Positions 38,383-40,593 of a stretch of DNA of 64,000 nucleotides are shown here, piece after piece; within the stretch, counting starts at the first letter, position 1, and each line of letters begins with the position of its first letter. The stretch comes from Gamaleyavirus NAN33P5. A program made the position numbers and the translations under genes. Location of the stretch: sequence record OZ035750.1; one strand, 5' to 3'. The notes below the pieces were generated by a model. The model was not told the DNA's origin, did not search any database, and saw only the letters and a list, made by a program, of their open reading frames with translations.

Positions 38383-40593
38383 TTACTTGCCAGCGAAGCG
38401 TTTAGCCACGGTGACCATTACGGTTGAATTCAATTCATCATCTGGCAATGGATTAGCCAGTTTCTTATTGAATGAGTAGACGGCTTGCTGTACTTGAGCA
38501 AAGTCCCAACCACTGTCTACTAATGCCAGTGCGTACTTAATCATTTGATTATTACGATTACCGGAGGCAATACGACCAGCGAACCAACGCTCCAGATTGT
38601 CTAACGACTGAACTTCCTTCATCTGGTTCTGGAACTGCTCGTTCTTACTGGTACGAGGAATAAAGTCACGTACATCCAACAGATTTGCATCAAGATTGTA
38701 ATGATAGGAACCAGTCTCACAGGACATCCACTTCTTGGCTCGTTGGTTAGCAGACTCATCCGTTTCGAATGGTAGCCAAGCCATAACGTTATTCATGAAC
38801 TCTTTGTATTCCTCGGTATCAAGGTGTAACTCATAGTTCATTGGAATAATCAGACGGAAGCGGTTCTCTTCGTCGGTATGACGCTTAGTGGTATAGGTCA
38901 TGAACTTATATTCCTTCATCAGTTCATGGCACGTATGCAGAGGTACTCCACCATCGCAATCAATAACAATCATGTTAAATCCTGGAATAACGTTCTCTTC
39001 AGAACGATGCCCATTCTTCATGTGATGGTTTACCCAGTGCATACCGGGAGCTTGGGTTAATACATGTAGCTGGTCAAACGGAACACGTTCACCAACATAG
39101 TCATAAGCAAAGCTATCACTATATGCCACTATCATCTCATTGGTGTCAGTCTCTTTCAGAGTCTCACCACGGAAGAACTCAATACCCTCATTGAAGGTCT
39201 TCTTAATAATGATGTGCTGTTTGTAACCCCATGCTGTAGCAAGAGTCATCATCTCATTACGAGCTGCATTACCACTCTTATAGAAAGGTAAAGACTCCAG
39301 CAAGTCAGCATGAGTCACTTCCTTGCCTACTGAGGCAATGTACTTAGCCAGCTTCACATAGGCTTTCTCACGATTGAGAATACCCTGGAATGCTGCCCCG
39401 GATTCTTCTACGAGCAGGATTGCTTGTTTAAGGTGAGTCATTTCAATGAATGAACTCTGGTCAACAAACGCCAGTGCACCTGCCAGCTTAAGAGCCTTGA
39501 AGTAACGGTGGGAGATCTCAGCCTTACGAATTTCTTCATGGTCAGCCATAGCCTCTGCTTGCTTCTCACAATCAATTTTGTAAGTAATCAGAGCAATACC
39601 CACTGCATCTTCCACAATCATCTTAAAGCCAAACAGGTTTGGGTCAGCCAGACTATGGAAGTGGTTAGCCCACTTACCAAGAGACTGGACGTTATCCTGC
39701 TTAATCAGGTTACGGTAGATTTCTTCCGGGGTCAGCGTTGCATGTGCTCGCTTGTCTAAGTGCCCAATGGCAAACAGACAACGACGTGCATACCCTGTAT
39801 CAAGGAAGTCATAGAACTGGTCTTCAGTCTGCCCACCATCCAGCAGCTTACTCGGAGTACCGAACAGCAGTAAGTTAGCAGGAGTTTTACCATCCAGTTC
39901 TTCGCCACGAATACTTTCAGCAGTGTTCTTGGTTAACTTCTGTTTTACTTTCCCCTGGTCATATAATTCAAGGAACAGGTTAAGCACTTCAACGTTGGCA
40001 ATGAGGTTGGAACCAATCTCATCAATCTGTAAGTTAATAGCACCACAACCAGCCATAAGTAGTTTGTGACGAAGTTGTTTTACAGCAGGTGCTGTACCAG
40101 AGTCGAATGTGAATGGGAATGCCCCAGCACGCTTATACTCTGCTTCAACTTTATCGAACTCATCATTCTGGTCCGTACCCTGACGAGCAGCACGTTCATT
40201 AGCAATCTTCCATAAACGGTCATTTGCAATGACGGGCATGGTGTCTTCCATAAAACGTTTACGGAAGCCAGTCATGAACCCGTCTTCAATGATATTTACT
40301 GAGTGACCTTTACCGAAACCAGATGTAGCCAACGCCATAGCGTAGATGTTTACCGGCAGGTCACCACGGTCTTTAGTTACGATGGTTGCACCCATGCAGG
40401 ATGCCATTTTAGCCAAGAAGTAGGCTACTTCGACACGGAAGAATCCCCGGTCGTTATTCTGGGTTTTATTGCAGAGCACATCTACGATTTCTTCAATCGC
40501 TGGATGGTGCACTACTCCGGTAAGGTCAATACTCATGATGGAAAATATCTCTCTCTTTGTTTGCAAATAGATGCGACAGGGCAGTAAAGACAT
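38383..40593 (-). CDS. DNA primase (AEP/prim-pol-like region with C-terminal PriCT-1-like domain)
   Basis: 736 aa; 'IVIDCDGG' acidic motif and C-terminal 'GNRNNQMIKYALALVDSGWDFAQVQQAVYSFNK...' PriCT-like signature. Confidence 0.5.
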   Translation of the reverse strand: MSLLPCRIYLQTKREIFSIMSIDLTGVVHHPAIEEIVDVLCNKTQNNDRGFFRVEVAYFLAKMASCMGATIVTKDRGDLPVNIYAMALATSGFGKGHSVNIIEDGFMTGFRKRFMEDTMPVIANDRLWKIANERAARQGTDQNDEFDKVEAEYKRAGAFPFTFDSGTAPAVKQLRHKLLMAGCGAINLQIDEIGSNLIANVEVLNLFLELYDQGKVKQKLTKNTAESIRGEELDGKTPANLLLFGTPSKLLDGGQTEDQFYDFLDTGYARRCLFAIGHLDKRAHATLTPEEIYRNLIKQDNVQSLGKWANHFHSLADPNLFGFKMIVEDAVGIALITYKIDCEKQAEAMADHEEIRKAEISHRYFKALKLAGALAFVDQSSFIEMTHLKQAILLVEESGAAFQGILNREKAYVKLAKYIASVGKEVTHADLLESLPFYKSGNAARNEMMTLATAWGYKQHIIIKKTFNEGIEFFRGETLKETDTNEMIVAYSDSFAYDYVGERVPFDQLHVLTQAPGMHWVNHHMKNGHRSEENVIPGFNMIVIDCDGGVPLHTCHELMKEYKFMTYTTKRHTDEENRFRLIIPMNYELHLDTEEYKEFMNNVMAWLPFETDESANQRAKKWMSCETGSYHYNLDANLLDVRDFIPRTSKNEQFQNQMKEVQSLDNLERWFAGRIASGNRNNQMIKYALALVDSGWDFAQVQQAVYSFNKKLANPLPDDELNSTVMVTVAKRFAGK

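Follow-up and report, generated by a model that had tools for sequence, protein, structure and literature searches.

An open reading frame (ORF) on the minus strand, at 38383..40593 of a 64,000-nucleotide stretch of DNA from Gamaleyavirus NAN33P5 (sequence record OZ035750.1; this whole stretch is referred to here as the window), encodes 736 aa when counted from its first ATG, and its stop codon ends at 38383. A reading made from the letters of the sequence (the original prediction) had described its product as a primase with an archaeo-eukaryotic primase (AEP)-like core and a C-terminal PriCT-1 signature, preceded by a large uncharacterised N-terminal region. By sequence comparison, the protein is orthologous to gp43 of coliphage N4, which is encoded by "dns", and a member of the phrog_2135 group, and we refer to it as gp43 in what follows. 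We consider it highly probable that gp43 of this G7C-like phage is a single-chain helicase-primase fusion in which N-terminal helices are followed by a DUF3987 AAA+ module, a winged helix, the AEP domain, and PriCT-1.

The ORF exists on the minus strand as originally proposed, but the gene most likely does not begin at 40593. We take the ATG at 40536 as its start, giving a protein of 717 aa, because this codon shares the four bases ATGA with the TGA stop of the upstream exonuclease gene gp42, because the annotated starts of the N4 and G7C orthologues are the equivalent codon, because diverse homologues all begin at the same position, and because the PHROG profile match begins only at residue 22 of the 736-aa version. 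The 19 extra codons of the longer frame fall within gp42 and would put the start 57 bases too far upstream. Residue numbers below are those of the 717-aa protein (19 must be added for the 736-aa frame), and conservation is counted over 41 diverse homologues with 33-88% identity. Positions and residue spans of the features are collected in Table 1.

Table 1. Features of gp43 in window coordinates; residue spans preceded by ~ are approximate.
Feature	Position	Strand	Residues	Remarks
gp43 (dns) coding sequence	38383..40536	-	1-717	717 aa plus stop
DUF3987 / MCM-like AAA+ ATPase module	39373..40392	-	~49-388	alpha/beta core and helical lid; putative ring helicase; Foldseek, DUF3987, MCM_lid
Walker A / P-loop ATSGFGKGHS	40300..40329	-	70-79	S72, G73, K76 invariant; G75 in 39/41
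Walker B NLQIDEIG	40012..40035	-	168-175	D172, E173 invariant
Conserved Lys/Arg-rich loop GKVKQKLTKNTAESIRGEELDGKTP	39880..39954	-	195-219	helix 3 to strand 4; putative DNA-contacting pore loop
R251-R252 in GYARRC	39781..39786	-	251-252	invariant; candidate arginine finger
Winged-helix-like domain	39157..39363	-	~392-460	three helices then a beta hairpin in the model
AEP catalytic domain	38602..39144	-	~465-645	
AEP motif I IVIDCD (hhhDhD)	38953..38970	-	523-528	end of strand 520-528
Motif II region YTTKRHTDEENRFR	38854..38895	-	548-561	non-canonical
AEP motif III region PFETD (hD/E)	38758..38772	-	589-593	P589, D593 invariant
PriCT-1 helical domain	38386..38598	-	~647-717	

The phage itself is a G7C-like member of the N4 family (Schitoviridae, Gamaleyavirus). 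The DNA of its gp43 gene is 97-98% identical to that of Escherichia phages SP5M, E20, F22, and G7C, all of the same genus, and at the protein level the identity is 99.9% with its counterpart in SP5M, 99.2% with G7C gp43 (YP_004782173.1), and 80.2% with N4 gp43 (YP_950521.1), the last of these matches spanning residues 1-733. The profile of phrog_2135, named "DNA primase," matches with 1239.7 bits, residues 22-734 of the 736-aa version aligning with profile positions 2-711 of 713. The same name is given to the orthologues in RefSeq, while the original GenBank record of G7C has "DNS protein; putative primase." Among 475 phage records with a match, 472 cover at least 80% of gp43, and nearly all are N4-like phages, with hosts that include Vibrio, Pseudomonas, Escherichia, Klebsiella, Erwinia, Achromobacter, Rhizobium, and roseobacters. 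The identity and orthology of gp43 are established in this way, as are its domain folds and the conservation of its motifs from the comparisons that follow.

The first 450 or so residues had been described as carrying no recognisable helicase motif and as uncharacterised, and neither description holds. This part of the protein contains a Walker A and a Walker B motif, it has a weak match to DUF3987, and the same combination of a DUF3987 AAA+ domain with a winged helix has been published for the N4 orthologue. Twenty of the 41 homologues match DUF3987 (PF13148) at E <= 0.01, and two orthologues, P0142 and P0147, exceed the gathering score of the Pfam model with 29.7 and 28.0 bits over residues 48-390, aligned to profile positions 17-362 of 364; a weak MCM_lid signal was also obtained from the middle segment. 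The full-length structural model has a mean predicted local distance difference test (pLDDT) score of 90.2, and when it was compared by Foldseek with the PDB, all 50 of the best-ranked matches listed were MCM2-7 subunits (probability 1.0; E 3e-5 to 2e-3). We read residues about 49-390 as a DUF3987 AAA+ domain of the helicase type, MCM-related and belonging to superfamily 6 (SF6).

Within this domain, the Walker B motif sits on a model strand at residues 167-171, and R251-R252 end a helix (236-252) directly before strand 5 (253-257), a placement like that of the SRF motif in MCM that makes them a candidate arginine finger. Another invariant residue, R344, lies within a lid helix. The basic loop at residues 195-219, in which G195, K203, R210, and P219 are invariant and K198 and K200 are kept in at least 90% of homologues, sits where MCM-type AAA+ proteins would have their pre-sensor-1 hairpin and may contact DNA in the pore. 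Few segments of the family are as conserved as this loop (GKxKQKLTKNT…R), yet it is the one place where confidence in the model is low (pLDDT about 49 at residues 201-210), a combination that would fit a mobile DNA-binding pore loop. Beyond the lid, the full-length model has helices at 392-403, 409-415, and 423-439 followed by strands at 442-449 and 452-459, a secondary structure consistent with a winged helix. Phage DUF3987 proteins have been described as divergent, MCM-related SF6 helicases that have a winged helix at their C-terminus (Kazlauskas, Krupovic and Venclovas, Nucleic Acids Research 2016; PMC4889955).

In the C-terminal third, an AEP-type primase core leads into PriCT-1, and here the original prediction was right. 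PriCT-1 (PF08708) matches far beyond chance, with 30.5 bits against a gathering threshold of 21.1 (E 2.8e-7) and is found in 32 of the 41 homologues; the signature string GNRNNQMIKYALAL that had been pointed out begins at residue 659. The acidic string IVIDCDGG ahead of it was located at residues 523-530 and is AEP motif I, with D526 invariant and D528 conserved as D in 40 homologues and replaced by E in the remaining one. R599, present in 39/41 and lying 6 residues past D593 of motif III, is a candidate for the conserved motif IV Arg that follows motif III in the PrimPol-PV1 supergroup, in which the motif II His is relaxed. Residues 460-717, modelled by AlphaFold2 from an alignment of 27 sequences, gave a mean pLDDT of 93.4, and for this model Foldseek ranked the cyanophage S-2L PrimPol (6zp9) first (E 2.2e-4), followed with weak scores by LigD PolDom, human PrimPol, African swine fever virus PrimPol, and herpesvirus primase. 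The nearest folds, those of S-2L PrimPol and RepB', belong to the PrimPol-PV1 supergroup.

Neither a canonical DnaG nor a D5-type helicase arrangement, which the original prediction had set against its own reading, was found by the domain search, and both possibilities are rejected. There was no match to a DnaG/TOPRIM domain in Pfam, NCBIfam, or PDB searches and no Pfam match to the D5_N or Pox_D5 families of superfamily 3 (SF3) helicases; the ATPase is N-terminal, and its 50 listed fold matches are to MCM and not to SF3. Two other candidates were judged spurious. Matches to Pfam Beta-lactamase2 (residues 479-527 of the 736-aa version, or about 460-508 of the 717-aa protein; window 38953-39120) recur below the threshold in 5/41 homologues, with a best E of 5.8e-5, and lie inside the AEP fold, and an Elf1 match was the sole result from NCBIfam.

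If the N-terminal half is a DUF3987 AAA+ module with a winged helix and the C-terminal half is AEP-PriCT-1, then gp43 reads as a single-chain primosome with the helicase first and the primase last. The inverted order is visible in the PHROG matches themselves. The helicase part of gp43 aligns with C-terminal portions of ordinary primase-helicase families (phrog_10514, positions 470-668 of 750; phrog_3022, positions 612-682 of 788), while residues 521-603 of its AEP part align with positions 64-160, where the AEP lies near the N-terminus, in the profiles of the primase-helicase families phrog_9765, phrog_695, and phrog_256. The atypical domain order seen in the original prediction is thus real, and it was described in 2016, when N4 dns was reported as a DUF3987(SF6)-AEP fusion in which the helicase precedes the AEP (PMC4889955). 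The same study classes dns as a replicative helicase and cites Guinta et al. 1986 for its essentiality in N4 replication and DNA synthesis. The present analysis reproduces this published assignment on the orthologue from this phage and adds to it support at the level of the fold and a residue-level map of the motifs.

gp43 lies in a minus-strand series of genes arranged as in G7C and N4: the RecD-like helicase gp37, the family-A DNA polymerase gp39, gp40, gp41, the exonuclease gp42, gp43, the AAA_24/Sak4-like gp44, gp45 (single-stranded DNA-binding protein, SSB), and gp46. Its place between gp42 and gp44 is the one it has in Schitoviridae replication modules, and the gp43 genes of N4 and G7C have the same two neighbours; the published architecture of N4 dns also matches the one found here, and nothing of substance differs. 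G7C carries, between gp41 and gp42, two genes upstream of gp43, an HNH endonuclease gene (gp41.1) that this phage lacks. The AAA_24 (Sak4-like) gene directly downstream of gp43 occupies 37574-38326 of the window, and gp37, a RecD/PIF1-like superfamily 1 (SF1) helicase with AAA_30/UvrD_C_2/PIF1-like assignments, lies at 45418-46728 in the same module, which gives the phage two helicase-type genes. The stop of gp41 and the likely start of gp42 also overlap as ATGA (41510-41513; gp42 at 40533-41585), which probably makes the exonuclease 326 aa long (MKITNNHD...) and not 350 aa, the length of its first-ATG ORF. The same window holds an ORF of the size of a virion RNA polymerase (3456 aa) on the plus strand.

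Several results weigh against reading gp43 as a helicase-primase. Taken alone, the window protein matches DUF3987 below the threshold (12.6-15.1 bits against a cutoff of 27, E 0.078 to 0.013, over residues 59-276 of the 736-aa version), and the template modelling (TM) scores to MCM are modest, at 0.25-0.30 if the length of the 717-aa query is used for normalisation and up to 0.47-0.55 if that of short MCM AAA+ chains is used. Neither the single protein nor a profile of 41 sequences had a meaningful sequence match in the PDB, the only matches being nanobody tags at E about 1. No Pfam AEP-domain family such as Prim-Pol was matched, even at E <= 10 with the isolated C-terminal segment, matches being confined to PHROG primase families. 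Motif II, in which the invariant T550-K551 and R561 lie on either side of the loop, has H553 in 36/41 homologues and so lacks an invariant His as the nucleotide-binding residue of the sxH pattern. Literature searches found no paper with biochemistry or a structure of N4 gp43 in the collection searched. Finally, the fork helicase of this phage could be the RecD/PIF1-like gp37 instead.

This last point leads to the alternative that the AAA+ and winged-helix domains form an ATP-dependent module for origin binding, melting, or loading, comparable to an initiator and working by way of the winged helix, that positions the primase while gp37 unwinds the fork. The presence of gp37 in the same module and the succession of an ATPase and a winged-helix domain would both suit such a role, and since AAA+ initiators and MCM share a fold class, fold matches alone are no proof of unwinding. 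The best fold matches are nonetheless MCM helicase subunits, and the conserved basic loop stands at the pre-sensor-1 position, as is typical for AAA+ helicases that translocate. AgaPH, a distant member and the only DUF3987 protein to have been characterised, is a true helicase, shown by experiment in 2025 to unwind 5'-3' in dependence on its Walker A and B motifs and to bind an AEP partner (PMC11724360), and Kazlauskas et al. place dns among the replicative helicases. We therefore regard an initiator or loader as improbable.

It is also conceivable that the AEP domain is not the replicative primase and acts as a repair or restart primase-polymerase, or that it has degenerated into a DNA-binding module that has lost catalysis, as its non-canonical motif II might suggest. 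The incomplete conservation of H553 and the failure of the Pfam AEP models to match could be read in this way, and many AEPs of mobile genetic elements are versatile PrimPols. Against this, the three acidic metal ligands are invariant down to 33% identity save for the one D528-to-E change, and the invariant K551 and R561 can replace the His, as Lys or Arg do in the BT4734-like and DR0530-like AEP families; relaxed conservation of this His is what defines the PrimPol-PV1 supergroup. No other primase gene is present among the genes of the replication module that were examined, the rest of the genome not having been scanned, and N4 requires dns for its DNA synthesis. Given the conserved acidic triad and the lack of a second primase among the module genes examined, an AEP domain that does not prime replication seems to us very unlikely.

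The original view of a primase with a novel N-terminal domain of about 450 residues, of unknown function and unrelated to helicases, could appeal to the sub-threshold DUF3987 match of the window protein alone (E 0.078) and to its lack of a sequence relative in the PDB, but it is refuted at the level of fold and motif and has next to no chance of being right, given invariant Walker A, Walker B, and RR residues, DUF3987 in 20 of the 41 homologues with two above threshold, 50 MCM structures among 50 listed PDB fold matches, the alignment of this region with the C-terminal halves of the primase-helicases phrog_10514 and phrog_3022, and the published assignment (PMC4889955).

A helicase-primase fusion remains the preferred reading of gp43, and its relation to better-known systems is one of shared parts in a different arrangement. 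Architectures of the form AEP-PriCT-DUF3987-winged helix occur in mobile elements, and PriCT-1 is related to PriL and PriX (Kazlauskas et al. 2018, PMC5862659). Ordinary primase-helicases of this kind from phages and integrated elements (PrimQH and all3500-like families; the SF6 protein of Mycobacterium phage Corndog) have the same set of domains as gp43, whereas in gp43 the order is inverted, AEP-PriCT-1 coming after the helicase and winged helix. The AgaPP/AgaPH pair of a Seonamhaeicola mobile element (PMC11724360) likewise has an AEP primase-polymerase working with a PriCT-DUF3987 helicase, but as two separate proteins, with PriCT on the helicase and not on the AEP, and without a detectable close sequence relationship to gp43. 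In S-2L PrimPol, an all3500-like member of PrimPol-PV1 with 10-12% identity to gp43, an AEP-PriCT-2-VirE/SF3-like helicase keeps the usual order and all crucial AEP motifs, whereas gp43 has the order reversed and motif II altered. MCM2-7 and archaeal MCM share with the N-terminal half of gp43 the AAA+ core, the lid (by the weak MCM_lid signal), an Arg directly before strand 5, and a putative C-terminal winged helix, at about 10% sequence identity. The MCM N-terminal tier of oligonucleotide-binding fold and zinc domains has no secondary-structure counterpart in the gp43 model, which begins with just ~48 residues forming two helices, and gp43, unlike MCM, has a long helical insert at residues 89-136. 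T7 gp4, P4 alpha, and vaccinia D5, like gp43, place a primase and a ring helicase on one polypeptide, but with the primase first and the helicase last. T7 gp4 and P4 alpha have DnaG-type primases, joined to a superfamily 4 (SF4) and an SF3 helicase, respectively, and D5 has an SF3 helicase.

From these comparisons, we infer how gp43 may work, including its oligomeric state, its unwinding activity and the polarity of this, the synthesis of primers, and the roles of single residues. The AAA+ modules would assemble as a ring on phage DNA. One subunit would hold ATP through its P-loop (K76) and Walker B (D172/E173), and R251/R252 of the adjacent subunit would sense it. The Lys-rich loop at residues 195-219 would then pull on the DNA, unwinding the duplex. 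The tethered AEP domain, with D526, D528, and D593 as predicted metal ligands and the basic K551/R561 in the place of the usual motif II His, would prime the exposed single strand, aided by the helical bundle of PriCT-1. If so, the primers would feed the family-A DNA polymerase gp39, which is encoded in the same module as the gp42 exonuclease, the AAA_24/Sak4-like gp44, and the gp45 SSB.

A bolder version of this helicase-primase model would have the AEP of gp43 as a distinct, unclassified family that matches no curated AEP model and has K551/R561 where the motif II His would be. Its attachment downstream of a winged helix and an MCM-like helicase would then be an independent primosome invention, with a primase-to-ring geometry, and possibly a polarity, unlike those of all studied primase-helicases; we offer this tentatively and hold it to be somewhat doubtful. 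An exhaustive search of representative sequences with a profile of AEP and PriCT-1 gave 265 representatives at E <= 1e-30, a number that rose to 2782 at E <= 0.001. The best 150 were gp43 orthologues only, with the module C-terminal in all of them, and no nearest AEP relatives from outside the Schitoviridae were revealed among these 150.

The gp43 genes of some relatives are associated with insertions or possible fusions. In Vibrio phage VCO139 (699-1739 of locus L006), an insert of about 1 kb interrupts gp43 exactly inside the codons for Walker A (…APSGYG | K…) and contains the ORF of an HNH homing endonuclease and a group-I-intron-like RNA. The Rfam group I intron model matches at 626-1087 with 32.6 bits (E 3.4e-6), below its gathering score of 50, and again at 1664-1696, and the insert is probably a mobile group I intron at the most conserved site of the helicase. 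In phage PhAPEC5 (501-1073 of locus L005), an HNH homing endonuclease gene lies precisely at the gp42/gp43 junction, and a short piece of the query that precedes the gp43 start, from the gp42/gp43 overlap, aligns upstream of the HNH insert, at its 5' edge. In neither of these relatives, PhAPEC5 and VCO139, does the HNH insertion split gp43 at the boundary between helicase and primase. Four metagenomic representatives (P0156, P0159, P0183, and P0289) are 1001-1049 aa long with AEP and PriCT-1 at their extreme C-terminal end, a length of about gp42 (326 aa) plus gp43 (717 aa), and they may be exonuclease-gp43 fusions or gene calls merged across the ATGA overlap.

As the finding of a genome scan, gp43 offers nothing new, since it is a replication gene widespread among N4-like phages, with hundreds of sequenced genomes carrying it, and a hallmark gene of the Schitoviridae, and its helicase-then-primase order has been known since 2016. 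As an enzyme of a bacterial virus predicted to join 2 replication activities of archaeo-eukaryotic type in reversed order, it would be a useful comparative system for the coupling between a primase and a ring helicase.

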